A stretch of DNA of 63,302 nt, counting the filler, from Licmophora abbreviata (lineage: Eukaryota), in NCBI GenBank assembly GCA_900291995.1. It is 10 parts of 10 records of this genome, joined end to end, with 100 filler letters (N's around TTAATTAATTAA, not from the genome) between each part and the next. Parts side by side here need not be neighbours in the genome. Positions count along the whole stretch, not along the records: positions 29,677 to 48,653 come from OLMU01003335.1; 9 more parts are not named here. The stretch is one strand, 5' to 3'. Below, one piece after another: positions 11,178 through 63,302 of this stretch. Numbering within the stretch: the stretch's first letter is position 1; each line of letters starts with the position of its first letter. The translations under genes and the position numbers were made by a program. The notes beneath the pieces are model-generated. The model did not search any database, was not told where the DNA came from, and saw nothing but the letters and a program-made list of their open reading frames with translations.

Positions 11178-14100
11178 ATGAAAAAAAGAAGGAACTGGCG
11201 CTCCTGGTCGGCATCCAGGGTACCATACCGACATGCACGACTACTACCTCGTCTGATTATCTCCCTGTTGGCACTGCACACTTCGTCGGTGACTGGAATA
11301 AGAAGCAGACAGCACAATCAGCGAATCCTGGATCAGATACCTCCGCCAGAGACCATTCCTGGAACCACTCCGGAGGCCTCGTTTGCTCCGACGACATCGA
11401 ATTCCCCGACCGTGTCAAGCCTAGCTCCTTCGTCTTCTGATAGTGGTGCATCCCTGCCAACGACGTCCAATATTCCCACAAAGCAGGCTGGCATTGACTT
11501 TGTGGATGGCGTGGACTCGCATGAACCGAGCATGGCTCCCACCTTGACACCTAAGCCGAGTCAGTCGTTCCCTCCATCGACTGTCCCGACCTATTCGTCA
11601 GTGCCCACTACGACGGCCAGGCCGACCGTGACAAAAGTAGTGACAAACAGCATTCCCGTAGACTTGGACGAAACATGTTACACGACCTGGGCAGATCTTA
11701 GTGACGCTGTTGAGAATGCCACAGGTGCAACAGTGCTAGAGGTCTGTGCCAATAGTACCTTGGTGCTATCACCACAGGATGCTCCCATTGAGTTTGGGAG
11801 TGGCATCAACGCCACCATTCTATGCGGACCAGAGGGAGGAAGACTGGAGCATCAATGCGCAATCTTTGGTGGCGTGGAGCACTTTCGAATTGTCGGGTCG
11901 AACGCAACGGTAGTCATGAAGGGATTGACCATGATTGCGTCGACATTCGCGGCTGTCCATGCCATGGGGGACGATACGTCTCAAATCAAATTTCAAGATT
12001 GTGAATTCTCGGTACGTGACATATGAGCCACTGTGCATGCTTGCTATGACTCTGGGGTGACTCTATCAACGCTCATGTGCCATTGTCGTTGTGTTGCTCT
12101 TTCTTTTCAAGGGCCATTTGGGCGTTGCGGCCGTACTAAATTATCAGGCGAACGTTACACGCATCAACGTCACGTCGTCCGCATCAGCCCGAGAAGGCAA
12201 TCGCAATCTGCAGGTAGCGCCACTTGCACCACCAGATGGAAAATCCATGAGGGTTGACTTCGAGTCTTGTGTGTTTACGGTAAGTCAAAGAGTGGAACTG
12301 TGGCTGGGCGCAGTGGACAGCAGAGTCTCATCCCTTCGCGATCGATTCACAACGACAGGACAACGTGGTTACCTATGCTCCGTTCGCGAACCTTGGTGGC
12401 GATACAAGCGTGACGAAGACTATCTTTTCGGGAAACCAAGGCGAGGTTGGAGCAGTCGGTACCTGGTTTGGGGGCTCCTTGGGTGTGTCCACGTCCTGTT
12501 TCCTTGGCAACAATGGAAACAAGACGGGCTCGATCTTTGTCGACGAGTCATCCGTGATAGTACAGCAGGTTGACAATTATGGGGATTCAGACAACGCTTT
12601 AATCTGCAATCATGTATCGGTGTCGGATGGCACAGGCAATGTCACATGTGACAGCTTTACTGCCAATACATGTCTTGCCCCGCGGATAAGCTCAAACGAG
12701 ACGACCGATAACCACACGGAGTGCATTTCGGAATGGGAGATAATCTACGCGCTTACCATTGAGGCGAATAATGAGGATGATCTTGTGCCTATTGACATTG
12801 AGGTATGCCCGGGAGTGACATTCAATATGAGCGAATACGAGGCGTCCGGACTTGCCCCGCTGGTCATCACGTCGAGCAACATATTGTTGCAATGTGGAAG
12901 TGGTGGGAAGAGTCAAAACGAATGTACTCTCTTTGGAGGAGCACGTCATATCGAGATATCTTCAAATGCTACCAATATAACGGTCCAAGGGTTCGCGATG
13001 GAGAACGCGACGGACGTTTCGGTAGTCATAACTACCTCGACTTCTTCCGACTCCGTGGTATTCGAGGACTGTTTATGGATGGTGAGTTAGATACATCTGT
13101 ATGTGAGCGAGGGTCAGGTCTGGTTTCGTTTCGTCGATACTCACAATATGTGACGTTCAACTTTACAGTACAATTCGGGGGAAGTCATAATGTCGATTGA
13201 GGAGATAGCCACGAATGCTCCGTCTTTGGCGCCTTCTGTGTCGAGCTCACCTTCGGCAGAGGATGTTGATCTTGGTGACGACGTCTTTATGGATGACTTC
13301 TTCAATCGAGATCTCGACGAAAGTTTGCCTTTGATGTCTTTGTCGGGCGTTCACATACTGAGGTCAACTTTTCGTTTCAACACGGCTGCGAAGTCAGTCG
13401 TGACCAATACTGCCGAGAATCTGATCATCGAGTCATGTGAATTCGACACGAATGTTGTTGGTGACAGCGTCGTAGCAACAACTGCGGGTGAGCTCAACAT
13501 GTCGTCGTGTTGTTTTCACGACAATGAGTACGACGCCACACAGGGAGTAGTGGTCAGTACCAGCAGCGATGGGTTCACTGTGACAGACACATTCGGGGAG
13601 AGGAACGTCGCTGTCAATGTTCTCCAGCCTCCGCGGTCTGGTTGTGAGGGCATTCAGTCAGAAGACGGTTCTTGCACCCCGTTCGATGCCTTGAGTTGTC
13701 CGCTTCTGCCTGACGAGAGCTGCTATGCGTCCTGGGATGCTCTGACGAGCTCAATAGCGAATGCTACCTTGAAGCAGGAGGGAGGAGTCTTCACAGTATG
13801 CGAGGATTCAAACTTGACCGTCAATACCAACTCAGCTCCAATTTTCATTGAAGTTAGTGATACTGTTGTTCAGTGTGGTCAATTCGGGGTGGGCAGTGGG
13901 CTATGTACGATTTCGGGTGGCGAAGTGCAATTCCAGATCATCGGCGCTCCTACAGGGGTTGAATTTCGAGGCCTCACCTTCTCGAATTCGTCTGGAGCTG
14001 CCGTTTTTGCTGCCGGGGAGAGAAGCGCTCGAGCTGCATTATATGATTGCCACTTCAATGTACGTCGAATGAATCCCCGCCTTTTTGCAATTTAAGACGT

Positions 14101-15667
14101 GTGCGAAATTTAACCAGCGCTTTTTCTCTCTCACCATGCAAAGAGTCATCAAGGCTTCGCTGCGATTCTGAACTATCATGGCTCTTTTCCGAATCCAGGA
14201 ACACGGGTGGAGGATGTCGAACCTCCAGTCGATCGATCAATGCAGCTCGAGATTGACTACTGTAGCTTTACAGAAAGTTCCGTATCATTCGCTCCAGTAA
14301 CTAACCTCAGGGGAAGTGTGTCAGTTCGAAACTCAGTTTTTAATAGCAATGTAGGAGAGGTAAGAATCCCGCAACATGCCTTAGTCAGCGTCGCTGTCAT
14401 CTACCAGGAATGGCCCCTCACACACTAAATTGATTTTAACAGAGCGGAGGCATTGGCGTATGGCAAGGAGGGGGGATGACGCTGGTCCAGTCGTGCTTTC
14501 AAGGCAACCAGGGGAACTTGTCGGGGTCAGCGTACGTAGATGTCAATTCGACTCTCACGTCAGAAGAAGATAATTACAGTGACAACAGCACCGTCTCGTC
14601 GGGTAGCTGCTCAGATCTTGTTATTGCCGGGGGCTGCGAATCAGAAGGCGTCTGCGATGGACTGTGTGTCGATTTCAACCAGAATACGTGTGCTGCCGAA
14701 GAGCCGCCGACGCAGGCCCCGTCAGTGGCGCCAAGCTTCCAGCCGACCNNNNNNNNNNNNNNNNNNNNNNNNNNNNNNNNNNNNNNNNNNNNTTAATTAA
14801 TTAANNNNNNNNNNNNNNNNNNNNNNNNNNNNNNNNNNNNNNNNNNNNACTCCGAGTGTACACCCGACGGCCTTGCCTTTCACATCAACCTCAACAACAG
14901 GTCCGTCGAACAAAATATCCTCAATGCCGTCCAATACTCCATCGCCCCCCATATCTGCTCCACCGACCCAACCCTTTCTCCTTCTACCCACCAACCAGCC
15001 CGTTGGCGATCCTCCCGTGTCAAACACTCCATCAGGACCCACAAGAGCGCCCACGCAAGCTACTCCTATAACCCCATCTCCCTCTCATCACTCCGTCGCA
15101 CCTACGTCAATGTCATCAATGAGTAAACAATCCAGTGCACCGTCCTCACCACCGCAGGTCATTTCAATCGGAGACTTGCCCATACCGCCTTCGCCCCCGG
15201 CGGCGCCGCATCCAGTCCCACCCGTGGCACCGCCTCCAGAGTCGGCCAACGATACGGCAATTCTCAACATTTCGACCTATCAACAAGCTTCGTTTGGGCT
15301 ATCCAGAGTGTTTGTCAGGACAATCGTGATAGTTCTGGTGCTCGTTATCGGAGCGGGAGTAGCCTTCTACTATTTGGCCCGGTATCACAATAGTGAAAGC
15401 CAGGTGATGCCGGTAGAAACGGCAGACGAGGACTCGCCAGAGCAGGCCAACGACGACAGTGATGATTTTTTGCAGGAGACCGACGAACGTGGGCATAATA
15501 GCACAGGTTGGATCACGTCCATGTCCAGCTTGATTCCACGTCTCGGTCGAGTCAGACGACGTGGGTCTTTTGAAAGCAAATCCATCATTTATATTGATGT
15601 GGGTGTCGGCAGTGATGATGGTTGCAATGATGACTTGTCATGCAAACGAGCTGCCCCTCTTTTCTAA
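11178..15667 (+). CDS. Giant type I membrane cell-surface protein A (3 Cys-rich/beta-helix-like repeat modules, PS/T-rich stalks, C-terminal TM), 6 exons, spans a gap
   Basis: Hydrophobic signal, RIL/RNL/RDL motifs, module CxxxWxxL...VC...QCGxxG...C.I.GG...GLT three times, TM TIVIVLVLVIGAGVAFYYL. Phase-0 introns at 12012-12111, 12280-12358, 13082-13168, 14060-14143 and 14360-14442. Start codon uncertain. Confidence 0.75.
14749..14848. other. Artificial scaffold spacer N44-TTAATTAATTAA-N44; also at 19172, 24278, 27142, 29577, 48654, 54920, 58616 and 60402
   Basis: Identical 100-nt spacer with six-frame stops occurs nine times. Several flanks are duplicated overlaps. Confidence 0.98.
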
Positions 15668-17645: not shown

Positions 17646-20600
17646 ATGGTGAAACAAAGAACGCGTGAGGAGAAATTGAGCACTCGTGTAGATGTTGTGT
17701 CGAAGAGTGATGTTTCGAATTTGTCAATCAGACCCAAGACAACATCCCGACAGGCCCAACGGACTTGTATGTCAAAGACCTTGCGAAGACTACTCGTACG
17801 ACGACCAAGAAAAAGTACGAACTGTATGAATAGTATCGGCAGAATATCCTCATCCTCAGTGTCGCCGTTGTTGTCGTCCTTGTCGTCATCGGTACTTTTT
17901 TTGATACTGCTTGTCTTTGCCAGTGTAACGACGACAGATTCTGCTCAGTCATCCTCGTCTTGCTACTCGGATCTCGAAATTCTCAAACAAGACATTGTAG
18001 CAGTCGGTACAGCCTCGAACGGGACCGATGGAGGGACGTTTGTCGTGTGCCCCAGCACGTTTTTTAACTTTTCCGAAAGCGGCAGTGGACCCATCGCGGA
18101 TGACGACGATCTCCTGCCTTTTGACGACGATCTCCTGCCTTTTGACGACGATGCAGCTACACCACCGCCCGATGGTGATGTTGGTCCCATTGTGCTCTTT
18201 GCGGACAATACTACCCTGCAGTGTGGTACTACTGGAAGCAGTGCGAATGCTTGTATCTTTACGAGTGGGGCCTTTCATATAAGTATTCAAGAGTCGCCAA
18301 GCGACATATTGATACAAGGCATTACGTTTCGGGCGGCGGAAGACTCGTCCATTGTCACGAGTGGGCAAGGGGGGAGTGTGGTCTTTCGAGACTGTCTATG
18401 GGAGGCAAGTACGATGGACTGACGTTTTCAATGATGATTCATGTATCATACTGTTTTCCCTTGGAAGTAGATTTGTGGCGATCGTAATGTGAATGCTCAT
18501 TCTTTTTGTCCTGTATTTTCTACAAAACAGAACAATGCTGGAAGCGGGGCCATTCTGCAGGTTGCGAGGGCACCGGACAATACGACCATGGCTCCGTCGA
18601 CTGGGCTTCCATCCATGAGTCCATCTACGGACATGCTGCAGTCCCTAGCACCGAGCATTTCGAGCAGTCCATCGACATCGCATGTGCCCACCGCGTCACA
18701 AGCGCCTACTCTGTCGGCGTCACCATCGACGTCCCGATCGCCTTCGGCAGATCCCTCGCAGGCACCGAGCAACAGTGTCGTTCCCACGTCATCTGTGGCT
18801 CCATCGAGCCTTACCTCACAAACTCCATCGACAAGCGTCCCTCCCTCTTCCTCGGTCGCGCCATCATTGGGCCTTACTTCACAAGCTCCGTCGAACAGTG
18901 CCGCTCCGTCTACCTCTGCCGCACCTTCCATTTCGGCAGCTCCCTCGACGTCGACAGCTCCTTCCTCGTCTCCCAGTACCTCGCTGAAGCCCACGACCTC
19001 AACCATGCCATCGGCAAGTCCCCGTCCGACCGTGACGGTACGACCGTCGGTGTCAACGCAGCCATCCCTCATGCCGAGTGTATCCTCTGACCCCACCACT
19101 TTTGCGCAACCTACCGGTGACCAGAATCCATCTTCCGCAAGTCCATCGTCCATCTTGTCGTCCGGTGCACCNNNNNNNNNNNNNNNNNNNNNNNNNNNNN
19201 NNNNNNNNNNNNNNNTTAATTAATTAANNNNNNNNNNNNNNNNNNNNNNNNNNNNNNNNNNNNNNNNNNNNCGTCCATCTTGTCGTCCGGTGCACCAACT
19301 GCGATGGTGGGGTCGAGTGCAATGCCTTCAGGAGTATCATCATTGGCACCCACGCTGTCTTCACGACCATCTGTGAGTGCTGTGCCCTCCCTGACACCCT
19401 CGACGAGAAACGTTCCTTCGACATCACAAGCGCCCTCGGTTGTGCTGTCACCAACGATTGGACCAAGCGCTTCCTTGTCTCCGTCTCTGTCGCCTTCGTC
19501 CAGTTCGAGCCCGAGTGGGTCTGCGTCGCCATCTGCCTCACCGTCCGTCAGTGAAAGTCCCTCCACATCCAATGTGCCATCCGTCATTAGCAATATGCCG
19601 TTAAATCAACCAAGTGGGCAGGAGGGTGACGCTATGGAGAATACACCTCCAGTCCTTGAAAGTCCTTCTGCGTCACCCATAGAGAACAATATTGAGACAG
19701 AAAATCCTACGGCAGTGTTGACCTTCGAGCCAACAACGACAGATGATCTGCTGTCGCTGACAGCGAATGATGATTTTCCGTTTCCAGACGACCGCACTGT
19801 GGAGAAAATGTTTGAAAACTGGGGTCGAAGACGGTTGATGACTGGACTGGAGATCACAGTGGAAGATTGCGTCTTTTCGGGGAATGTGAATAGTGTTGCC
19901 ACGTTTGTCAATTTTCAAGGAGTTTTGCGTTTGATTCGAACACTGTTCATTGGCAACGAGGCGTTGAACTCTGTGGTGGCTGTCTATCAAGGCACTCTGG
20001 AGTTGACCAACTGCTCTTTTGTCGAAAATACATTTCAGCTGTCTCCTGGGCCTGTGTTCTTGGATAGCGAATCGACGATGACATCCAATGAGGGCAATTG
20101 TGAATTTGACAACATAGCCGGAGATGCGGGGGCCATGTGCGACGGAGTCTTCAAAAAGACAGATCCTGGACTCTGTACAGATCCTTCGAGCTGTCAAGGG
20201 GCATGCAGTAGCTTCACCTCCCTGGAATGTACTGTGATATCATGCATTGAGACCTGGAGTGAACTGTCGAATGCACTGTCTTCCCCAAGCTCAAGAGAAG
20301 TGTTTCAGCTATGTAATAGGACACTGTTTGATATCAGTGATCAATCTATCCCTCCGATTTCTATTCGGGGCGGTCGGACAATCATTCAATGCGGGCAAGA
20401 CGGGAAGAGAAGCAATGGCTGTCTCGTTCTTGGAGGGGAAACTCAGTTTCGGATTGGTAATGCGTCAAGCAATGTTGAGTTTCATGGGCTGACGCTTTTG
20501 TCATCTAGCCGCACCTCCGTTGAGGCTTCATCTGACGCGAGTTCGTCGGCTCTTTTCGTCGATTGCGAGTTTGCCGGTCATACAGGGCTTTCCGTAGTCC

Positions 20601-23497: not shown

Positions 23498-24377
23498 AAT
23501 TGCGATCTGTTCAAAAGGACTTGCAAAATGCTTGCTAGCAAGATTGGATAGGCACGTATTACTAGTTACGAGTAGTCGAATAGTCGTTTCCCAGACAATC
23601 GATCCTGTTCGTTGGCAGTGTTTGCGTCGTGATAATCTTTGGAAGATGTGGCGCAGTACACGAGGTGATAGGGGGTGCTACACTGGAAGGCTCTCAGGAG
23701 ACCCAGATCCATGGATTGAATACTTTCCAAATGACAAGGGCCAGTCGCCGCTATTATAACTGTCCCCACCATTGACGCCAATGAGAAGAATCTCGTGATT
23801 GTTCAGAGTCACAGCTGTACGCAAGCTCTGCCCGACTCTTTGTGCTTTCAATCGAGTCCGCACGCCGGAATCGACATTGTAGGCGTCCACACGACGAATA
23901 TCCCTTCCTCCGTATTGTCTTGTTCCACCGCTCATTTTTTGTTCTTTCCAAACCGTCTTGTACTTTAATTGACACCAATGTGTTGTTCGTCTTCCTCTGT
24001 CTGTTACTGTAGCCAGGGGCGATTCTTTCTCTTCAGAGAGGGTACAGTATTACACTTCCTATGTTGTCGTCTCGTTCATCGGTCCTGCAATTCCAAACTG
24101 ACTTTTTGTCTTTTTGGTTCCAAAACTTTTCGCGTCCGAGACGTCTGGCGTGCACCTCGTACCGGGTGGCATCCGAGTCAGCCACTACTCAAATTATTCA
24201 TGCAATTCAATATAAATCACTTTATACATTAATATGATCTTAAATTCATTCCTACTCGTATCATTTTTTGGCGAATTNNNNNNNNNNNNNNNNNNNNNNN
24301 NNNNNNNNNNNNNNNNNNNNNTTAATTAATTAANNNNNNNNNNNNNNNNNNNNNNNNNNNNNNNNNNNNNNNNNNNN

Positions 24378-26765: not shown

Positions 26766-27362
26766 TCTTCTCTCTCACAGCTTCTTGTGTCTTTGTATCT
26801 CCAACTGTGGCTGCGTCGGTTTCTCATTGTCGGGTGTGTCATATCACGAAAAGATTTTTGTCGTGTTTTGGAAGGACTTCCGGGTTCGTACCAGTGAATG
26901 AATGAGTCAGAGTCAAGTTACCAAACACTTTAGCGTTCTACACCTATTTATATAATTTATGATATAAATAAAACGGTATCCATCCAACGCTTCAGAGTTG
27001 TGACGCCACCAAACAAGACCCAACTGCACGCGCAGCATCGTCGCCTCTTCGTGTGTTCTGCTGTTGTTGTTGTTGCTGTTCATGTTCGCAAAACACACGC
27101 GATCGATCTGTATGATGTGTCAATCGATTCGATCCGTAGCANNNNNNNNNNNNNNNNNNNNNNNNNNNNNNNNNNNNNNNNNNNNTTAATTAATTAANNN
27201 NNNNNNNNNNNNNNNNNNNNNNNNNNNNNNNNNNNNNNNNNGTTCGCAAAACACACGCGATCGATCTGTATGATGTGTCAATCGATTCGATCCGTAGCAT
27301 AGCATAGCATAGGAGGACCATGATGTTAGTTGTCCGTGTCTGAAATCGAATGGCCTGCAAGC

Positions 27363-29809
<2,447 letters not shown>

Positions 29810-38323: not shown

Positions 38324-40644
38324 TCAGCATGAGAGGCACGTCGCTTGGCAGACGTCGGCAACGGCCTCGTCAACACACCGAAGGCCTATCCAACGGTTGC
38401 GAGATGCCAACCAGGCGCAGTCCTTCCAGCCATTTTTCCCGTTGATATACACTTCACCGGGCAAATCTACACAAGCGCCATCCTTGCTTACAATATCAAT
38501 GGGGGTGTAGATGCGGCCTTCCCAGAAATTGCAGCTGTCGCATGTCTCTTGGCACAGATAGCTTACATCCTTTTCCTTGTCGCAGTGTCTATTCTTGAAG
38601 TTGGCGTTTTTCGTTGCCACCCATGCACAATCTTTGTACCCTTTGCTATTGTTGATCCAAATGTCGAAACTGTCTTCGTTCTCGCAGGTCCCGCCGCCCC
38701 CGCCACCATTCTTGCTCACTGCGTTACTGAGGGTGTAGCTTTGACCGTTCCAGAAATCGCAGCTGTCGCATGTCTCTTGACACAGGTAGCTTACATCCTT
38801 CTCCTTGCCGCAGTGGTTATTCTTGAAGTTGGTGTTTTTCGCTGCCACCCACGCACAGTCCTTGTAACCTTTGCTGTTGTTGATCCAAATGTCGTAACTG
38901 TCGTCATTCTCGCATGGATCGCCTCCAGCGTTGCAGCCTGCAGGATCACAGCTCGGGGCGGTTGAGACTGATGGTGACGATGATGGCTTCACGCTCGGTT
39001 TGTGGCTCGTCGTGGGAACTTGGGTTTGACTGGGAGCAGCTGACAATGACGGTTGCGAGGAAGGAAAACTACTCGGGGCGGTCGAGCCAGACGGTGGCGA
39101 CGATGGGTGCACGCTGGGTTTGAGGCTCTTGGTAGGAACTTGACTTTCGCTGGGAGATAATGACAATGACGGTGGTGAGGAGTGCGCACTGCTCGGAGAT
39201 GCCGAGCCAGACGGTGGCGACGATGGCTGGACGCTTGGTTGGAGACTCGCTGTTGGAACTTGGGACTCGCTGGGAACTGCTGAGATTGAAGGTTGCAAAG
39301 ATGGTACGCTGCTCGGAGCGACCGAACGAGACGGCGAAGACGATGGCTGCACGCTTGGCTGAGTGCTCGTGGACGGAGTTTGGGATTGGCTGGGAGCAGC
39401 CGAGATTGACGGTGCAGACGACGCATGAATGGTTGCCTCCACTTCTTCCACGAAATCCACGTGATCTTCGTCGAGCAAAAACAATGATCCCAGGCCGTTG
39501 CTGTCGCGTGGAATGTTCCACGTCCAGGCTCCTCCTGCCTCGAGCACTCGGCTCTTCCAATCTGCCGCATGAGACACGTTCCAGACTAGTGCCGAGCCGA
39601 CCGTGTTCCATTTGTTGGACACGGGCATGAACAAGTGACACAAGGAAGACTCGCCTTGGGAGTCTGTGACAAATCCATCTGGTGTACTCTCAACGTCTTC
39701 GACCATTGCCAGATTAATGTCATCATTTGGGTTGGCGTTCTTCAACGGCTCTGGGTGGCCAGAAGTGAAATGTTCACGTCCTGGACTGTTTACTTGTAAA
39801 GGTCGCTTGGGTCCTCGGTTGAAGGCAATCACAGCATTCGGGTTGTTTTGTGTGATGATATCATGAATGGTCGTAGTATGATCGAAACCGACTCCAACCA
39901 AGTAGCTTCCTTGATCAAACCACCAGCCATCGATCAAGTCGGTATATCTCGCGGCATACTCTCCCACAATAACTTCGGAATATGCCAATGCCAACGTGCC
40001 ATCCTCCGCATCTCCATACTCTTGAGTCACATAATCTTTCCACCTCGCGATTGAAGGCGATTCTCCGTTGACAAGCTGGTTGTTGTTCTCCGCCCATTTA
40101 TGGTCGAAGGCACGAGTGGGATGCTTTTGCATGGCCGGACCTTGAGCACCCATGTATGCGATCACTTTGATTCCTTCATCCTTGATGGCTTCGGCCAATC
40201 GTTGGAAGAAGTCTTTTTCCCCTTGAGGTGGCTGAACTGGGGTAGACCGAGGATTGAGGGGTGTTAGGATGGAATGCCAGGACATGTATGTGTCGCCCGA
40301 GGCGCCGCCAGAGAGATTCACAACAACCCAGGAAACATCCCCGATAGTCTTGACTTGGTCCACAAAAGCGGGAATGTCATATCCGCTGATATAATAGTTG
40401 TCCAACCAAGAGTCTCCACCAATGTAAAGTTCTTTCCCTGAATGCATGAAGGGGAAACGGCATGGATTAGAACTAGAGGCGAAACAATGCTTCTGGAAAT
40501 TTGCCTGGGTTGCTCCGTCATCCTCGTCTCACCTGCTGGGATCCGATAGCCAACACCCCACTTTCCAGACATCCACTCGGCATTCCGTTGCCCCTGAGCC
40601 ATGACGGCTGTGAGAATCAAGAGAACAATTCGACCAAGGTTCAT
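38324..40644 (-). CDS. Secreted GH107 endo-fucoidanase-like glycoside hydrolase + Ser/Pro stalk + 3 six-Cys domains, 2 exons
   Basis: Signal peptide MNLGRIVLLILTAVMAQG, WMSGKWGV, RYTDLIDGWWFD (R-x5-D-x4-D) and FTSGHP. Intron 40438-40532. Confidence 0.75.
38945..39424 (-). repeat. 4 x ~120-nt (40-aa) tandem Ser/Pro repeat in the GH107 linker
   Basis: Units of the form SxxPSxSxxPSxSQVPTxSxxPSVxPSSxPSxSxxPSS repeated four times. Confidence 0.8.
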
Positions 40645-48131: not shown

Positions 48132-51018
48132 ATGTCGTCTCCGCTGCAGCGCCTCTTAGTTCGAGGCCAGTTTCTCCATACAATGGACGAGGATCAGACT
48201 TACGAGGACACATTGGCTCTCAGAGATAGGTCAGCTGTGAACCTACAGAAGAGGTCTTCGTTGCCATCTTCGGCGACTACAACACCGACTTGGCGAAACT
48301 GGTGGACGCCTCCGACACGCCGCATATCGAATCCCTCTTTACGAAGTGAAACTTCACCCAAGCAGCACCATCCGAAGATGCTGATACGGAGAATGCCAAA
48401 CGTCACACCGTTTCTATTGCGACTGCATGAACATTTGGAACGCTATTCGCAGCATTTGTCGGACCCATCGGTCGAACACTCTGTGGCTGCCGCGGCGCTT
48501 TTGGATGCAGGCGTGGCGACAGCCAGTAGTCCTCGCACCTCCCCGTCGTCGACTCCGAACCACAAACGATCGCCACCGCTGCAATTTTTCGGAAAGCAGT
48601 CAACACAGCAGCAACAGTCTTCTCATGCCATGGCACTTGAGGTCGAATGGGAANNNNNNNNNNNNNNNNNNNNNNNNNNNNNNNNNNNNNNNNNNNNTTA
48701 ATTAATTAANNNNNNNNNNNNNNNNNNNNNNNNNNNNNNNNNNNNNNNNNNNNAACAGTCTTCTCATGCCATGGCACTTGAGGTCGAATGGGAAGCCTTC
48801 GTGTCGCCCTTGTTGTTGCTGGCAGGTGCCGAAGCTCTCTATGGTCAACTGGAACACGTCATGTCCACCCCGAAAGCACACCATGCACCTCCTGCAGATT
48901 TGTCGGTTCTCTATCGCACTATTCATAAGGATCTGAAGAAGGTCAAGAAAGAGCTGTGCGAGAATCTCTTGTCACAGCCAGAAGGGCGGTCGGAGCAAGT
49001 ATTGGAGGCAGCTCGAACAGTCCATGTCTCTCTAAACTGTTTACAAAGCCTCACGGTAGTTCGATGTCGACTGATCGAACTTCAACGAATGCTCTTTTCA
49101 ACAGCGCCAGCGACTGGCAAAGACAACAATGAGTCCTTTTCGACAAAGTGCATGGCTCTGGCGGAGTCATGCCGAGAATTTCTTCCAGATCCAAAGCAGC
49201 CATGTGGCCTGGCAACGTCGCTTGTTGTATCACTTCAAAAGGAAGTCAAGACTTGGATGTCGCTTCTGGAAACCATGGCCTGCCTGGAACAATGTCGGTA
49301 CGTACTCACGAGTGTTCATCTTGTCCCTTATTGGAAGAGTCGCCGGGATACTGTGAGGATGGTCTGTTTATAAATTTGCAGTCGACGTGTTCTCAAATCA
49401 ACCTGGCGAAGAGTAGCGATTGGGCGGACAAAAAGCACTCGTTGTGGCTGCGATTATCTACAGTCCAATGAGCCGTCGTACTAGCCTACACTTTCGTTTC
49501 AAGTGAATGTGGTTTTCTCACATGTTCTGTGTCGTCGAAACCTCGACTAGGTTTCTTGAGACTGTTCTCGCTGCGAAGAAGACCAAGGACTGTATTCGCA
49601 TGTCGTCTTCCACTACGCTCCAGTGTTGGTTTCGCCAGACGGCGGAGCGACTTCTTTCTATCATGCCTTTGTTTCTTGATTGCGTCAGTACATTCGCATC
49701 GCCTCTGTATGGATTTGACCGAATCGGTCTGGAGGAGTCCGCTCGAGAGGACAAAGACCGGCTTGGACTTGTAAATGACTACGAAGCGGAGATTCACGAC
49801 TTTTTGCGGCGCCAAGAGACCAAGGGAGGCTCGCCCATGGCCATCGCCATTGTCGTCGATGCTGTTGGCACAGCCAACCAGCGCATGGAACAAGGTGTCA
49901 TGCTGGATCAAGCCGGACAAGATGACATTCCTGATGAGGCGGAGAGGCTGCGTCGGGAATGGAAAGCGGTCTACATTCGTAGTACGCTTCATTCTATCGT
50001 CGGATCAAGTCCCAATCTGTCACGCTCTCCTTCACACGCATCGAGTGGACTATTCCGGATGAGCAAATCGTCCTTTCAGAATACGCGGAGGGATGACGAC
50101 CCCACGAAACTTTCCCCCGGTCCCACGAGGAATATGCGCTCGATCGACGCGAGCGCTCTATCAATCGCACGTGCATCTCACAATCGGCATGTCCTGGAGT
50201 ATGCCCCTGAAAAGGGGGTCTGCTCATGGCCGCACTCGGAGTGGCATCGTCTGGTGGAGATAATTTTGAATGTTGACGGGAAGGTGGAGCCGTCGAGTCC
50301 AGTGATAGAAGGCGACGCGACAAACAAGCAGCGAGTTCTTGGAAAGGCCGCAACATATCGGCCGCAGAGCACGCCATCGTCCGCCCTGGATGACAGGATC
50401 GGCCACGGAACACCTGATTCGACCTCGCAATCAGGCTGGATGGGGAACTGGGGTGCTCCTCCACCGCCCCCTCCAGTGACTTCTGGCCCCACTCAAGCTC
50501 AAACAAGCACCTCGAACTTTCACGTGATTCGCCTTGGAGAGTTTGTCACTATGCTTGTCATCGCCAAAGAGGAAGAAGGAGTCAAGTGGCAGCTCCGTCG
50601 AACTCGAGGGCACACCGATGAAGAAGTGCGATCATTTCTGAATGAGATTGCACCAAAACTTCGTGTATCCACGCTCTTCGATACTGAAAGGATTTCTGTG
50701 GCGCGAGCTCCGAAAGGACAGGAAGCAACGGTACCGGGGTACGATCTCTTGAGTATCTGGACGGGAAACGATCATCTAGACGAGGAGAGAAACGCGCAGG
50801 AATTCCTTCGCAGCCTCAAGGCATCGTTCGGTCTTAGGCCGCAAAGCCCGCTGATTGACAGCCCTTATAAGGGTCTTTTCCGATCAGGATCGAAAACTCA
50901 ATCAGCTAGGGATCCACGAAGGCGTAGCCGACTGCGAAAAAGACGAGTACTGAGTGACGAGGAGAGCGCTATTGCTTTTTTCCTCGGCGAAGATCTGATA
51001 TCAGGTATCCGCAAGTGA
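48132..51018 (+). CDS. KICS2: KICS2/C12orf66 (DUF2003) homolog, KICSTOR subunit-like; spans a gap
   Basis: LAGAEALYGQL...LYRTIHKDLKKV, SWPHSEW and FHVIRL...EVRSFLNEIAPKLRVSTLF resemble recalled C12orf66 blocks. Intron 49298-49550. Confidence 0.6.
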
Positions 51019-54631: not shown

Positions 54632-56791
54632 ATGCCACGAAACAAAGACGACGACGACGACGACGACTATATGGGCGACAAACTGGTCGCCCCACCCGAC
54701 TTTGGTGGCCCGACGGGAGATCGAAGATGCACCGACATTCTCTGTTCGCTGCTCATGATTGCCATGTGGGCTGCCATGACATACATTGGCATATACTCGA
54801 TCAACAATGGGGACTATCGACTTGTCCTCTATCCTCTAGACTATGACGGAAACGTCTGTGGGACCGACTTTGCGCAAGACATGACGGAATATCCCTATCT
54901 GTGGTATGTCAACGCCTGGNNNNNNNNNNNNNNNNNNNNNNNNNNNNNNNNNNNNNNNNNNNNTTAATTAATTAANNNNNNNNNNNNNNNNNNNNNNNNN
55001 NNNNNNNNNNNNNNNNNNNCCTGGACCGGAGGCGTGTGCGTCAAGGAATGTCCGTCCTTGCAAGGCCTCGTGTTGAACAACGTGTCGGACATTCGGACTA
55101 TGATCACCTACGGGGGGGTCTGGCAGACGGCTGGCGCTGAACTCAACGCCTCCTTCCTTCAAATGGGAAACTACGAAAACTCCAGTGACGCGCTTTTTTG
55201 TTCCGACGACTTGTGCTTTCCCAACGACGATCCCGTACAATCCTGGACCAGCGAGGGAGTTGACGAGGGCAATGGCTTTGCTTACTACGTGGGTGACTCT
55301 TATCCCCTCTTGTGGAGATGCTACTTGACGACAGCTGCGGAAGATGCCATTACGGAGGCCGTGCAGAATCCGAATGCCACGCTCACGCAGGAAACCGACC
55401 ACTATGAATTCTTCAACAAACTCTATGGCGATTTGTGGACGGCTCGACAGTACATATTGGGGTTCGGATTCTTAGTGGCACTGGGACTCGCCTTTGCCTA
55501 CGTCTTTCTTCTCAGATTACCCGTTCTACTCAATACCCTTGTTTGGGGTGCTATTTTTGTAACCATTGGAATGGTCGGGGCTGCCGGATACTATGCCTAC
55601 CGAACTGCCAATGAATGGGATGATGCAGCGTCGCAAAAGTGGTCCGAGCGGAGCATTCAGGTGACTCGAATAGCTAGTTACGTCTTGTGGGGCATAACTG
55701 CCTTTCTCTTGCTTGTCTTGTGTTGCTTGCGCAAACAGATACAGCTTGCGATTGGATGTGTCAAGGAGGCAGGAAAGGCCATTCATCGGATGCCCATTGT
55801 CATCTTGGTCCCCGTTCTACAGGCAGCCGCCTTTATCGGATTTATGGTGGTCTTGACCATCTACGGAGTGTGGTTGGCGTCGTTAGGCGAAATCACGACG
55901 TACGATGTACCTCTCAGCACGTCTGGGCTCGAGATTGCCTTTCGCACCTATGAGTTTGACGACTTTGTAACCGCTTGCGGCTGGTATCTGCTCTTTTGCT
56001 TGTTTTGGACTGCAAATTTCATTGTCGCTGTCGGGGATGTGATTGTTTCAATGTCCGTAGCGAAATGGTGAGTGCTAGTGGAGCGGAACGTCGCTGAATG
56101 GGCCCAGTGATGCCACTAACTTGCGAAACGAATATGCAGGTACTTTACGCGTGACAAGAAACGAATTCACAGTGGCTACGTGCTAGGCAGTATCTATGAT
56201 ACACTCCGCTATCATCTGGGCACGTGTGCATATGGCTCATTGGTGCTGTCCATAATTCAGATCTTTCGAGCAATGTTAGCCAAGGTACAAGCCCAGGTGA
56301 AGAAGGCCAACAACCGATGCGCAGACTGTGTGTTTTGCTGCTGTCAGTGCTGCCTGTGGTGCTTTGAAAAGTGCATTCGGTTTCTCAATCGAAACGCCTA
56401 CATACAGACTGCCATCTTCGGTACCTCCTTTTGCAGAAGCGCTCGTGAGGGTTTCTTTCTAGTTCTGCGAAACGTCGGACGAATCGGGGCCATCTCGTAC
56501 GTTTCGGGCGGTATACTGATCGTTGGTAAGCTCTTTATCAGCTCGGTCACGACAGCTCTGTCGTACTACGTCATGAATGAGAAAATTTCCGATGAACTCT
56601 ACAGCATTGCCGGTCCGGTGGTCTTTGTGTTTTTGATTTCATACTTTGTGAGCGATATGTTCTTGGACGTCTTTGACATGTGCATATCGACGGTGCTTCA
56701 GTGTTTCATTGCGGATGAGGAAATGTTTGACGGGCGAGATTGTTTCGCCGAAGGATCGTTGCAAAAGTGGATTGACGAGTACGAAGGCTAG
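54632..56791 (+). CDS. Choline transporter-like protein (CTL/SLC44), 2 exons, spans a gap
   Basis: RRCTDIL, DYDGNVCG, RYHLGTCAYGSL, FLNRNAYI. Intron 56068-56139. Confidence 0.93.
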
Positions 56792-58227: not shown

Positions 58228-59544
58228 ATGTTTCCCGTCATCGCTACTCATAGAGCTTGGTTCGTCTTGCTCTGGAAGCTTTTCTTACTTGGTTGCTCCA
58301 TGGAAATGACTGCTTCTGCCGCACTTCGCAACATGCTGCGTTCGAGTGCTTCAACACCCACACACGCCGCCGTTCTCGAACGCACCTTTCTCTGCAGCGA
58401 CGGACTCCGACTGGCCGCACAGCACTACTGTCCGCCTGTTGCGTCGCAAGCAAACAACAACACGACTCAACACATTCTACTGCTGCATGGCTGGCTGGAC
58501 AACTCCCGGTCCTTTCATACATTGGCTCCGTCGCTTTGTCAACAAAACAACAATCAGGAAGAAACTTCTAGTACTACCGAAGTCCTCGCCCTCGACTTTC
58601 CTGGACACGGACTCTNNNNNNNNNNNNNNNNNNNNNNNNNNNNNNNNNNNNNNNNNNNNTTAATTAATTAANNNNNNNNNNNNNNNNNNNNNNNNNNNNN
58701 NNNNNNNNNNNNNNNCCTCGCCCTCGACTTTCCTGGACACGGACTCTCCCAACACAAGTCCCCCGACGGTGGAGCCCCGCAAGTCATGGCGGAACTGACC
58801 TTCTACGTGGCTGAAGTCATCGCACAGCTTCAGTGGGATACCTTTCAGTTGGTCGGACACAGTATGGGTGCCGCTATTAGTGTCATGTACGCGGCTTCCT
58901 TTCCGGAGCAAGTCGAACGACTCGTGCTCTTGGAGGGAGGGGGGCCGCTCTACCGTAAGCCACAGGATTATGCCAAGCATGTGCGGGCTGCGATCCAGAG
59001 GAGGCAGATTGGAAATTCCCAACTTTATCCACAATTTCGTACTACTGATGGTACCGGTACTACTACTAGTACTACTACTAGTACACCAGCTGCAGGAAAC
59101 GCCGCAACAACACGAAAAGGACCCCGACTCTATCCATCCTTGGATGCGGCAATCGACACACGAGTCAAGACTGCAACACTGTCTCCAGGAAATCAGTACC
59201 TGTCCAGGGAGGCCGCCAGAGAAATGGTGGAACGTGCGACGGTCGAAAGTATGGAAGGAGGTGTGCAGTTTCGTCACGACCCCCGCCTGCAGTGGCCGTC
59301 CATGGTGTACAGTACGCAAGCGCAGGTGGAGGCAATCCAGCGCGATGTGCAGTGTCCGGTGTGTCTGCTGCTGGCCAAGGATGGGTGGCCGTTTGATCCA
59401 GAGCGACTGGAGAGGACGTTGACATTGTTGCAGCCAGCCGTCTATGAGACCTTGGATGGCAGTCATCACTTTCATGCAGATCCGGACCACGCTGAGGAAG
59501 TAGCTAGACACGTGCGACTGTTTTTACAGGAAGGAAAGGAGTGA
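58228..59544 (+). CDS. Serine hydrolase-like (SERHL/kraken) alpha/beta hydrolase; spans an overlap gap
   Basis: LHGWLDNSRSF, DFPGHG, GHSMG nucleophile, RHDPRL, GSHHFH. Start codon uncertain. Confidence 0.88.
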
Positions 59545-60330: not shown

Positions 60331-60509
60331 GGCCTTCCTTCTTTCAACAAAAGGAGCATGTTGTGTGTTCTCTTTTTGTGCAGTGTCACCCCTGTCATCA
60401 TNNNNNNNNNNNNNNNNNNNNNNNNNNNNNNNNNNNNNNNNNNNNTTAATTAATTAANNNNNNNNNNNNNNNNNNNNNNNNNNNNNNNNNNNNNNNNNNN
60501 NTACGAGCA

Positions 60510-60804: not shown

Positions 60805-62166
60805 CCCCCATCCGAGCATGGGGATATAAAACTGTCGCGGAGACGACAGAAGAACGCAGGGGACTTGTGCTCCTTGGTGAACATGTCAGAGGGATTGAGT
60901 GTCCCTTTGATATGATGAACAGCAACCTCATGGTAGTCCTGGACCGCCTCTTGAACCGCAAACTCTTGAATGTTGATGCAACGTAAGGCCTTCATACTGT
61001 TGGTCTTCGTCCAATCGACTGCAGCTTGATTGTCGTTGTAGATGGGAGTGGGGAGGAGCTGGGGAAAGGCAGCATCAGCAAGAACGAGACGGAGGAACTG
61101 AACACTCTTGGTGGCTTCATCCGTAGTCTTGACTTCGGCTTCAGTGGAACTGCGGCTAGTACGTTTCTCTTTATGAGTCTTCCATTGAAGAGTGTGGACC
61201 ACCGGAGAGAAATGTGATGTGCCCACGAACGGACTTCATCTCGGTCTTAGAGACAGTACGGGTGTTCGTAGGAGACGGGATGGAAGCATCTTGAGGGCCC
61301 CAGTTGGAATCCGTGAAGGCGGTGAGGACACTACCGTTGAGAGGGAATTCGATGAAAGCCTCGAGAGAAAGCGGCGACCTGGAAGTAAAAGAGATACCAA
61401 AGTCCGAAGAGCTTTTGAGATAGCGACCCATGTAGCGAGCCGCATCCAGGTTACCAGGGGACGGATTGGCAGTGTATGATGCCAACAATGATTGTACCGT
61501 AGATAAGTCAGGTCGGGTGCATATAGCAAGCCAATTTAGCATGCCAACGTAAGATTGGTAGGTAGTGCATAGAGAAGCACGAGCACTGTCAGCCATATCG
61601 ACATGGGGAATAGAATCGATTGCCAAACCAGAGCGGTAGGGTGACATATGTTTGGAGACGGCAGCATCCGTCAAGCCCACCGTATCCACAACCAAGTTAG
61701 CATACGCCTCCTGGGAGATATGCACCGTAACATGCCCATCGTCATGTCGACACCAATCAAAATGTTGTCCCAGAAAATAGGACACGTCACCCATGAATTT
61801 GACATTGACCCGGGTAGACAACTCGGTTTCAAATGCAATCTCAACACGCCCATCAGAAGAAAAGTAGGCTAGATCATCAACGTAGATACCAACGTAGAGG
61901 AGAGGGCCGCCTGGAATGGGAGTGCTGGAGTAGATACACGGAGAATGGGCGAGAGGTTGGAACCCCATCGCCTTGAGGTGACCCGTGATGAAACGGAACC
62001 AAGAATGATGAGGCGACCAACGTAAACCATTCAAGGTCTTCTTCAACCTCCAGTAAGTACGGGGGGCAGACAGTGGACAATGGTGAGGTGGTTTGACAAT
62101 CACAACCTCATCGGCAGGTAACGGTGGGTGGCAGAATGCATTTTTGCAGTCACCCTGTTTCAGCAT
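60510..62166 (-). mobile_element. 5'-truncated, frameshifted Ty1/copia LTR retrotransposon (RT, RNase H, PPT, 3' LTR)
   Basis: RT GDCKNAF..LKKTL.GL..YVDD; RNase H FTDSNWG, SSTEAE, YNDN, NPSDMFTK; frameshift near 61190. PPT GGATGGGGG abuts TGTCAGA. Confidence 0.9.
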
Positions 62167-63302
62167 TGCTGGACACTCGTGGATTGCGGTCCTTTGCTGC
62201 TCTGTAGAATCCCTATGCCCTACAGGAGGCTACAACGGCCCGTCACTCTGGAGACAGTTTACAAACAAACAGTCCTGCCTGACGCACTGAAGCTTCTCAG
62301 TCCTATGGAGGGTGATCCATCCACGAAGGGAGCTCTTGAGCGACAACAAGTGGTGAAGCTGACGACAGCTTTCACGATTGTACAGGGCTATAAAAACCCG
62401 GTTTCTGGAGGCGGTCAAAAAGACGTATGCTTGCAGTCTGATATTTATTTTGTCAGAAATGCTTGTATCTGAGACTAGCTTACACCATTGCTCTAAAGCG
62501 CTGGGAATGGAATGGCGAGCACTGTTGAATGGAGTGTTGCAGGGAGGGGATTAAGGGGTTGAGTGACAGGATATGACTAGGACTATGTTAGTATTAGCCA
62601 AGCTTTGGGAAAAGCCTGAGTCGCTGCAGATGGACTCTTTTTTCAAGGGAAAACATTGATTTCAATCAAATGCAGACTTGTTGGTTGAGTTCCGTCAGTG
62701 CCATTGGCAATGTTGGACCGTCTCTTTTGCCGACGGGTTTCTAGCTCGACGCTTCTGTAAAAAGAGAAACCAAACCACTTTCCACTATCCAGATGGTGAC
62801 TGCCTTCCGCAAAGACTATCCTTCCCCTTGTCCTAAAGGTGCAAGGGGTGAGCATCAGTTCCCCACAACTCTCAGACAGTTCCTTCCTTCAGTCTGCTTG
62901 TTTTGGATGTGCAGGTTTTGATAGCCTGTACCTCGGGATTTTCAAAGGCCAACATCGAATTTGCAGCACACTTCAGTTCCTGTTGACATTGCTGACTCCA
63001 GCAATGATATCCAGACTCTTCCTTTGTTCAGCGGATTTGTTGTTTTTGATGTGCAGCTGGATGCTGCGGCTTTGTCTCCGTTTCAGTCCCACGGTGTTTG
63101 GAGTCTCGGGCTCCTGCGTAGTCTGCATGCTGGAGTGTGAACATTTTGAGAGCTGAATACAAGCAAAAGTGATTTCGTACTCATTTTAGAATAGTACCTT
63201 GGAGACAATCCAGGAAATATTGCAAACTAGAATATTCCCACGGATTCTTTTTCCAGCAGAACTACAGAGTTCAGTCAAGTGCAGGTGTGTTCATTGAGTT
63301 TT

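Follow-up and report, generated by a model that had tools for sequence, protein, structure and literature searches.

A candidate secreted endo-fucanase of family GH107 encoded by an intron-bearing nuclear gene of the diatom Licmophora abbreviata

We analysed a stretch of 63,302 nucleotides from the genome assembly of the diatom Licmophora abbreviata (GCA_900291995.1), composed of ten parts of ten records joined end to end and referred to below as the window, and found in it one copy of a gene encoding a catalytic domain of glycoside hydrolase family 107 (GH107). From its sequence and modelled structure, the product is predicted, with a probability of about 0.6, to be a secreted, matrix-targeted endo-α-L-fucanase acting on sulfated fucan. 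The gene occupies the whole span 38324..40644 of the minus strand, which is exactly the span of its coding sequence with the stop codon included, and encodes a hydrophobic leader, the catalytic domain, a Ser/Pro/Thr-rich linker and three six-cysteine modules (Table 1). Residue numbers such as D174 and H227 refer throughout to P0001, the protein encoded by exon 2.

Table 1. Features of the GH107-type gene, with positions along the window
Feature	Position	Strand	Details and basis
Exon 1	40533..40644	-	112 nt; start codon 40644-40642; translation
Hydrophobic leader, ~18 aa	40591..40644	-	Read by eye from the sequence
Intron, spliceosomal-type, phase 1	40438..40532	-	95 nt, GTGAGA...TTCAG (GT-AG)
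Exon 2	38324..40437	-	2114 nt including stop codon 38324-38326; open reading frame list and translation
GH107-type (β/α)8 catalytic domain, exon-2 part (P0001 1-340)	39416..40437	-	phmmer against the PDB, profiles, AF2, Foldseek, VIA-align
Asp174 codon, predicted nucleophile, in GWWFD	39914..39916	-	Alignment with the GH107 nucleophile
His227 codon, predicted acid/base, in SGHP	39755..39757	-	Alignment with the GH107 acid/base
Ser/Pro/Thr-rich linker, ~155 aa	38951..39415	-	About four 40-aa repeats; Tandem Repeats Finder
Cys module 1 (P0001 508-559)	38759..38914	-	C-x18-C-x14-C-x9-C-x3-C-x2-C
Cys module 2 (P0001 584-635)	38531..38686	-	Same spacing as module 1
Cys module 3 (P0001 655-703), C-terminus of the protein	38327..38473	-	C-x17-C-x13-C-x8-C-x3-C-x2-C

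Family assignment of the catalytic domain

The catalytic domain, about 355 amino acids long in full, very probably belongs to GH107, with GH29 clearly second by pairwise sequence, profile and predicted structure. In a phmmer search of the PDB sequences the GH107 chains alone stood on top, led by Mef1 (8bpd, 2.2e-7), P5AFcnA (6m8n, 4.3e-5) and MfFcnA (6dlh, 2.4e-4); pairwise E-values of the GH107 chains ranged overall from 2e-7 to 4e-3 and those of the GH29 fucosidases were around 1. Profile A2, built from 26 sequences each at least 39% identical to the Licmophora protein and chosen so as to avoid circularity, gave E-values of 8.9e-33 to 2.2e-29 for the GH107 chains, with alignments spanning almost all of the domain, whereas the top GH29-like chain (FucWf4) reached only 1.2e-4. 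The broader profile A1 of 63 sequences reached 1.7e-53 for GH107 chains. Family PF26376, for which the Atlas gives the name 'Mef1', was present on 10/10 homologues from the word-index search, and the corresponding Atlas cluster is named 'Endo-alpha(1,4)-fucoidanase Mef1 domain-containing protein'. An exhaustive search of cluster representatives returned 231 of them at E <=1e-3, 67 of which were at E <=1e-30.

The AlphaFold2 (AF2) model of the exon-2 part of the domain had a mean predicted local distance difference test score (pLDDT) of 93.9 and a predicted template modelling score (pTM) of 0.91. The five GH107 entries took Foldseek ranks 1-5 (E 2e-17 to 2e-15, TMq 0.70-0.78), and the GH29 entries began at 2e-10 with TMq of at most 0.62. 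Superposition by VIA-align gave Z 30.3-32.6 for GH107, with a root-mean-square deviation of 2.3-2.7 Å over 299-318 residues, against Z 19-24 (maximum 23.9) for GH29 and GH29-like chains. The original prediction, made from the DNA sequence, had called the product a GH107 endo-fucoidanase-like enzyme and had named GH29 or another barrel family as the best match that would speak against this; such a match was looked for, and GH107 came first in sequence, profile and structure alike.

Several observations weigh against the reading of the product as an endo-fucanase. A local Pfam scan of the exon-2 protein returned nothing significant (GHL6 at E 0.18, GH98C at E 0.69), PF26376 being absent from that copy of Pfam, and in the Atlas feature search clusters labelled as α-L-fucosidase, with PF01120 on 41-80% of their members, outranked the Mef1-labelled cluster, which came at rank 24. 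The AF2 model lacks the first β-strand, which is encoded by exon 1, and does not allow the shape of the groove, and hence endo-action, to be judged from it. Of the nearest characterised enzymes, the solved GH107 ones show a structure-based identity of about 19-23% and Fda1/2 were compared by short motifs, and we know of no biochemically characterised member in the subclade of 59 sequences to which this gene belongs. The AF2 model of the three Cys modules, computed from a 5-row alignment with the first Cys of module 1 cut off, reached a pLDDT of 41.8 and a pTM of 0.26.

The order of clusters in the Atlas search would suit an exo-acting, GH29-like α-L-fucosidase that trims terminal fucose from glycans or glycoproteins instead of acting on fucan backbones. 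The two families share the barrel fold and the mechanism, with an Asp nucleophile on the equivalent strand, GH29 chains do align with the model at the Z-scores given above, and sub-threshold PF01120 matches occur in three homologues (P0008 at E 1e-3, P0033 at 1.3e-3 and P0023 at 9e-3). This alternative is nevertheless unlikely, since GH107 stands far ahead of GH29 (about 1e-33 against 1e-4 by profile, some 28 orders of magnitude, and Z 32 against 24), the predicted acid/base is a GH107-type His in a GH motif and not a GH29-type carboxylate, and PF01120 (GH29) gave no match to the exon-2 protein in the Pfam scan even at E up to 10.

Predicted active site

The endo-fucanase reading is carried further by the conservation of the catalytic residues. 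The two motifs noted in the original prediction, RYTDLIDGWWFD and FTSGHP, were both present and give D174 and H227. D174 lines up with the Asp of WCFD in MfFcnA and of YWLD in Mef1 and P5AFcnA, and was invariant in all aligned sequences (63/63 in A1 and 26/26 in A2); H227 lines up with the His of FGHP in MfFcnA and of SGHP in Mef1, and was invariant in A2 (n=26) and at least 90% conserved in A1 (n=63). In the excerpted text of PMC10619423, the source of the GH107 residues and motifs used here, the catalytic Asp/His pair is Asp187/His270 in Mef1 and Asp201/His276 in P5AFcnA, and the motif-I Asp and the motif-II His are the only residues named as catalytic in the family. The same excerpt lists Tyr128, Asn215 and Trp318, plus the conserved Pro313, for the -1 subsite of Mef1 (PMC10619423). 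Their counterparts in the Licmophora protein were Tyr94 in VIAYMG, Asn206 in VIAFN, and Pro271 and Trp276 in FMPVSNKW, of which Y94 and W276 were invariant in A2 and N206 and P271 at least 90% conserved (n=26).

The Asp of the DxxxGH motif, five residues before His227, is replaced by His (EHFTSGH). This substitution had also been pointed out in the original prediction and is real, but it is uninformative, as the column varies among close homologues, where D, N, A, H, S or G was found in A2. Taken with the long Ser/Pro stalk and the Cys-rich modules, which resemble those of matrix and adhesion proteins, a His at the place where characterised GH107 enzymes have Asp (excerpted text of PMC10619423) might suggest a GH107 domain without turnover that binds fucan in the manner of a lectin, within a matrix protein of adhesive or structural role. 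We hold this to be very unlikely, because both catalytic and all four -1 subsite residues are intact, the substituted position is variable in close homologues, and the same Cys modules are found on peptidases with intact HExxH-type motifs.

The motifs of the Licmophora enzyme were closest to the Fda1/Fda2 type (IDGWWFDH, GHPTP, VVAYIATQGP) of the variants tabulated in PMC10619423. Fda1 and Fda2 are listed there as α-1,3-specific (PMC10619423, excerpted text), and the resemblance of these short motifs hints at a preference for α-1,3 linkages. The isoelectric point (pI) of the domain is 4.6, near the medians of the close bacterial clade (4.55, n=13) and of the Fda-like clade (4.69, n=6) and unlike that of 11 distant GH107-like representatives, which are basic (median 9.07). 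An acidic pI is common to the close bacterial and the Fda-like clades, and acidity is therefore no argument against a fucanase.

Comparison with known enzymes

Fda1 and Fda2 (AAO00508.1 and AAO00509.1; PMC10619423) were compared with the Licmophora enzyme by short published motifs alone, in the excerpted text of that source. Likeness was found at the nucleophile, in IDGWWFD(H/Q), at the acid/base, in GHP(T/E)P, at the -1 Tyr, in G-I-K/R-V-(V/I)-A-Y, and at the -1 Trp, in F-M/L-P...W-N. These enzymes are also multidomain proteins with a C-terminal extension, as is the Licmophora protein, but they have Asp five residues before the catalytic His (PMC10619423, excerpted text) where it has His, and they differ from it in that the diatom protein is eukaryotic, is encoded by an intron-bearing gene and has a different C-terminal region. 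The motifs nearest to Fda1/2 were those of the Pseudoalteromonas, Aliiglaciecola and Enterobacterales group, and this Fda-like clade (Pseudoalteromonas/Aliiglaciecola) stands as sister to the clade containing the Licmophora gene and is distinct from it.

The enzymes of known structure, MfFcnA (6dlh), P5AFcnA (6m8n) and Mef1 (8bpd), share with the Licmophora model the (β/α)8 fold (Z 30-33) and the aligned Asp/His and Tyr/Asn/Pro/Trp residues, whereas the loop insert that carries the Ca1 site in Mef1 and P5AFcnA falls in an alignment gap. The uncharacterised proteins of Luteolibacter, Pontiella, Akkermansiaceae and Algibacter are 40-44% identical to it over the whole domain. The GH107-like proteins of marine Verrucomicrobiota, Kiritimatiellota, Planctomycetota and Bacteroidota share its motifs, the leader followed by a WMSGKWG start and the acidic pI. 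Unlike the diatom gene, the bacterial ones are intron-less, and their accessory regions are annotated as 'putative Ig domain-containing' or 'LamG', with no Ser/Pro stalk and Cys modules.

Gene structure and genomic context

The spliced coding sequence of 2226 nt is translated in frame into 741 amino acids with zero internal stops. In the leader encoded by exon 1 a short, basic N-terminal part is followed by an unbroken hydrophobic run and an end of small residues, and directly after the leader comes AEWMSGKWGVGYRIPA, the first conserved strand motif, with which the catalytic domain starts across the family; the unspliced long open reading frame (ORF) is without this strand. By BLASTP the 37-residue exon-1 peptide matched at least 60 of 165 family proteins at the N-terminus of their domain (top match P0095, E 4e-9), several of which aligned via their own leader too, and in the family alignment homology continued across the exon junction. 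The splice model is therefore backed by the homology of the exon-1 peptide, beyond a mere GT-AG pair, and this homology supports the intron as real. The signal peptide and the GT-AG intron of the original prediction were thus recovered, the former as a leader called by eye, and so were its four 40-residue Ser/Pro repeats and its three six-Cys domains, which are described below.

The window is diatom nuclear DNA, because the best named relatives of a thiolase encoded in it, at 64-70% identity, are all diatoms (Seminavis, Eucampia, Cylindrotheca, Epithemia, Nitzschia, Pseudo-nitzschia and Chaetoceros); another match to this thiolase was 79% identical. Apart from the thiolase, the 25 largest ORFs of the window include a CBP/p300-type acetyltransferase (KAT11, TAZ, bromodomain, PHD and ZZ), an eEF1A-like GTPase, RING and SAP proteins, a choline-transporter-like protein and a copia-type reverse transcriptase; no member of the sulfatase, fucosidase or fucosyltransferase families was found among these 25. 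The composition of the GH107 gene is native, its GC content of 0.50 and GC content at third codon positions (GC3) of 0.54 lying within the ranges of 13 other ORFs of the window (GC 0.495-0.535, GC3 0.48-0.67).

As GH107 is described from bacteria only in the cited literature, bacterial contamination or a mis-assembly, and not a diatom gene, would be a simple explanation for its presence here. It is barely credible, given that eukaryotic-type genes flank the GH107 gene within 250-650 bp on the same contig, that the GT-AG intron is needed to encode the conserved N-terminal strand, that the composition is native and that the nearest runs of N lie 9 kb from the gene. The eukaryotic neighbours together with the homology-backed intron bear out the eukaryotic, intron-bearing gene that had been proposed originally.

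Linker and six-cysteine modules

The linker contains a tandem array at 38973..39396 with a period of 120 nt, 3.5 copies and 73% matches (Tandem Repeats Finder score 342), and Ser, Pro and Thr make up 57% of the 182 residues P0001 341-522, which cover the linker and the start of Cys module 1. Two additional Cys lie just upstream of the three modules, within the C-terminal 200 residues. No Pfam family was found for the modules, either in the exon-2 protein or in P0001 515-703 alone.

A search with P0001 515-703 identified four proteins (P0288-P0291), all of them secreted-type hydrolases from marine metagenomes: one beta-lactamase-family hydrolase (E 1e-18, 40% identity) and three gametolysin-type M11 peptidases, one of which also has an astacin match. 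In 4/4 of them the catalytic domain is followed by a Ser/Pro/Thr linker and by two or three six-Cys modules, with the shared pattern ...Y/W-I/V-N...G...C-A/S-W-L/I-A...C...C-x-E-T/S-C-D-S/T-C. The unit would seem to be a targeting module, not yet described, that has been shuffled among secreted hydrolases represented in marine metagenomes. Because the same modules end other secreted enzymes, their most likely role, by analogy, would be to tether or target these enzymes in the extracellular matrix.

The Cys pattern is presumably comparable to that of ShK/ShKT domains (PF01549), which are likewise small, in tandem and placed at the end of secreted enzymes, with six Cys ending in C-x3-C-x2-C, but the first inter-Cys spacing in the Licmophora modules is much longer (17-18 residues). 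PF01549 gave no match to the exon-2 protein at E up to 10 or to P0001 515-703 at E up to 0.01. In the Atlas search with the module, clusters of diatom hypothetical proteins came first (0.91 and 0.90), and the ShK cluster was at rank 10 with a score of 0.80, below the level that the Atlas calls more than a lead. The sequence pattern suggests a diatom-type six-Cys module with merely a loose ShK-like arrangement of cysteines.

Relatives and evolutionary history

GH107-like domains were identified in six further diatoms, namely Thalassiosira exigua (P0008), T. profunda (P0033, on a 1.3-Mb contig), Corethron pennatum (P0040), Stephanopyxis turris (the P0042 cluster), Odontella aurita (P0080) and Ditylum brightwellii (P0067), as well as in the choanoflagellate Diaphanoeca grandis (P0028) and in EukProt 'Awhi' (P0009), which we take to be the ichthyosporean Abeoforma whisleri. 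The scan for related loci with A2 gave 32 loci from 65 pattern matches. Bacterial carriers at 36-44% identity were Pontiella/Pontiellaceae, Luteolibacter, Oceaniferula, Akkermansiaceae, Opitutia, Woeseiaceae, Algibacter and a metagenome-assembled genome (MAG) of Planctomycetia, and homologues from Pseudoalteromonas and Aliiglaciecola were 29-33% identical to the Licmophora protein.

A FastTree phylogeny was computed from 109 domain sequences, for which rows that reached a hidden Markov model coverage of 290 or more and four close relatives that were shorter had been kept and 21 near-duplicates dropped. Its backbone was unresolved, and the deeper GH107 clades among these 109 rows hold solely bacteria-named or unnamed rows. 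An IQ-TREE phylogeny of 67 rows, rooted on the Fda-like clade, was obtained under LG+C20 with posterior mean site frequencies by a quick search, with support from the Shimodaira-Hasegawa-like approximate likelihood ratio test (SH-aLRT) only. In it the 59-row ingroup had a support of 100 and the Licmophora gene paired with P0004 (support 95, 59% identity), while its other near relatives, at 47-49% identity, include no named bacterium. The surrounding clade of 23 rows (SH-aLRT 86) contains Corethron, Stephanopyxis, Odontella, Ditylum and 'Awhi' and zero named bacteria, and is itself nested among homologues from marine Verrucomicrobiota, Kiritimatiellota and Planctomycetota. Its unnamed members carry EGF, Hint, F5/8 type C, CEMIP beta-helix, PT-repeat and ice-binding domains. 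Diaphanoeca grouped with a Woeseiaceae/Verrucomicrobiota clade (support 86), and the Thalassiosira pair with sequences of Planctomycetia and Opitutia MAGs (L006 and L008; SH-aLRT 99). An approximately unbiased (AU) test rejected the nine named eukaryotes as one clade against the 18 named bacteria (delta lnL 73, p 0.008), a p-value that is weakened by the group having been picked after the tree was known.

We read these trees as those of a basically bacterial family with more than one passage between bacteria and marine protists, although mis-binned MAG contigs could explain part of the interleaving of eukaryotes and bacteria. A recent, lineage-specific horizontal transfer to Licmophora from a fucoidan-degrading bacterium, with the intron gained later, would agree with the nearest named bacterial relatives being 40-44% identical (Pontiella, Luteolibacter, Woeseiaceae, Akkermansiaceae and Algibacter), with the bacteria-named or unnamed rows of the deeper clades in the 109-row tree, and with the rejection of a single eukaryotic clade, by which crossings between bacteria and eukaryotes did occur in the family. 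It is nonetheless quite improbable, as the nearest relatives (59% and 47-49%) and the 23-row clade are without a named bacterium and include four named diatom genera, members of that clade bear the eukaryote-type EGF, Hint and F5/8-C domains, GC and GC3 lie inside the range of the neighbouring ORFs, and with an unresolved backbone no donor for such a transfer can be named. On our reading the gene belongs to a long-resident, diversified diatom lineage and is not a lineage-specific acquisition; the direction of transfer is one that we infer. Of the earlier proposal of a bacterial-type enzyme acquired by horizontal gene transfer and domesticated, the rooting of the family in bacterial diversity and the interleaving of eukaryotes with bacteria have stood, and the 23-row clade without a named bacterium and the native GC and GC3 speak against the remainder. 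The phylogeny with bacterial GH107 sequences that had been suggested along with it showed bacterial surroundings and a gene placed inside a clade in which no bacterium is named.

The grouping of the Thalassiosira pair with MAG sequences may represent a separate, more recent exchange between bacterium and diatom, or mis-binned contigs. In P0010, P0011 and P0012 a Ser/Pro linker joins the GH107-like domain to one or two ice-binding domains (PF11999, E 1e-25 to 1e-53), and these fusions suggest a role in the extracellular matrix of sea-ice diatoms. In P0030 the GH107-like domain is followed by a Pro/Thr-rich stretch and a Hint autoprocessing module (hedgehog/intein type, E 2.7e-25), an unusual combination that could free or anchor the enzyme by self-cleavage. 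Of nine metagenome loci, three (L061, L075 and L089) showed consecutive tblastn high-scoring segment pairs in different frames, 46-185 nt apart; these frame switches fit introns, at positions other than that of the intron in the window. Poly(A) tails were not seen on 19 short metagenome or metatranscriptome loci with homologues, an uninformative result.

Proposed function and significance

The observed gene model, family membership, conservation of the catalytic residues, eukaryotic context and distribution of relatives allow a mechanism to be proposed for the endo-fucanase. The leader would be removed and the protein exported, after which the (β/α)8 barrel would hydrolyse internal α-L-fucosidic bonds of sulfated fucan chains by a retaining double displacement as in bacterial GH107 enzymes, with Asp174 as the presumed nucleophile, His227 as the presumed acid/base, and Tyr94, Asn206, Pro271 and Trp276 forming the putative -1 fucose pocket. 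The Ser/Pro-rich stalk, probably O-glycosylated, would space the barrel from the three presumably disulfide-rich modules, and these may hold the enzyme in the cell coat or mucilage. The likeliest substrate would be a fucose-containing sulfated polysaccharide of the diatom's own mucilage or cell coat, or of neighbouring algae. Self-remodelling of the diatom's own sulfated fucan, as the role of the enzyme, has in our view somewhat less than an even chance of being correct.

According to the excerpted text of PMC7896085, sulfated fucans secreted by diatoms resist degradation by bacteria and act as a glue in sinking particles. The gene is of moderate to fairly high interest, since the presumed substrate is a product of the diatom itself and is important for carbon export. 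Should the enzyme be active on this fucan, the diatom producers themselves would set the chain length, solubility and stickiness of a polysaccharide to which particle formation and carbon export are attributed; diatoms make long-lived sulfated fucans and probably carry their own enzyme for cutting them. The gene offers a concrete candidate for the self-remodelling of fucan mucilage, for instance in cell separation, motility trails, aggregation or ice-associated matrices, and a eukaryotic source of fucanase, possibly of a new specificity, for the preparation of defined fucan oligosaccharides.

The GH107 family itself is already known, and PF26376 tags eukaryotic homologues in precomputed annotation, their public names being 'hypothetical protein' or 'EGF-like domain-containing protein'. 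In the excerpted text of PMC7896085 and PMC11943901 GH107 is handled as a bacterial tool, and neither 'eukaryot' nor 'diatom' occurs in the latter, a 2025 review of fucoidanase sources. No paper on a GH107 encoded by a diatom or another protist was found in our literature searches, judged mostly by title and the start of the abstract. What we rate as new is a eukaryotic, intron-bearing GH107 clade with domain architectures of its own. More tentatively still than for self-remodelling, we suggest that diatoms and some marine holozoan protists might possess a clade of GH107 endo-fucanases that is old, diversified and not yet described, with fusions to matrix-targeting, ice-binding, EGF, Hint or discoidin modules. 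If so, some of the GH107 signal that counts as 'bacterial' in ocean surveys would come from eukaryotes, and a bacterial origin should not be assumed for GH107 reads in size fractions rich in eukaryotes. The distribution of relatives also documents a polysaccharide-degrading family common to marine bacteria of the Planctomycetes-Verrucomicrobia-Chlamydiae (PVC) group and several protist lineages.

Other features of the window

The apparent CBP/p300-type co-activator is represented by two adjacent long ORFs on the minus strand (3324-8055), with KAT11, ZZ, two to three TAZ, bromodomain and PHD domains, and the gene is probably split by an intron or a frame change near 5071-5228. A plus-strand ORF at 13154-14095, 24 kb along the window from the GH107 gene, gave a weak Beta_helix match (E 5e-6, 26.7 bits against a cut-off of 25.9) and may encode a secreted carbohydrate-active or adhesin-like protein. 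The window contains 792 N's arranged as nine pairs of 44-N runs, with 12 readable bases between the runs of each pair (14749-14848, 19172-19271, 24278-24377, 27142-27241, 29577-29676, 48654-48753, 54920-55019, 58616-58715 and 60402-60501); these resemble deliberate masking or a scaffolding convention and not ordinary gaps, and several coincide with the ends of long ORFs. Near the end of the window, a copia-type RVT_2 ORF on the minus strand (61171-62229, E 8e-17) marks a retrotransposon remnant.

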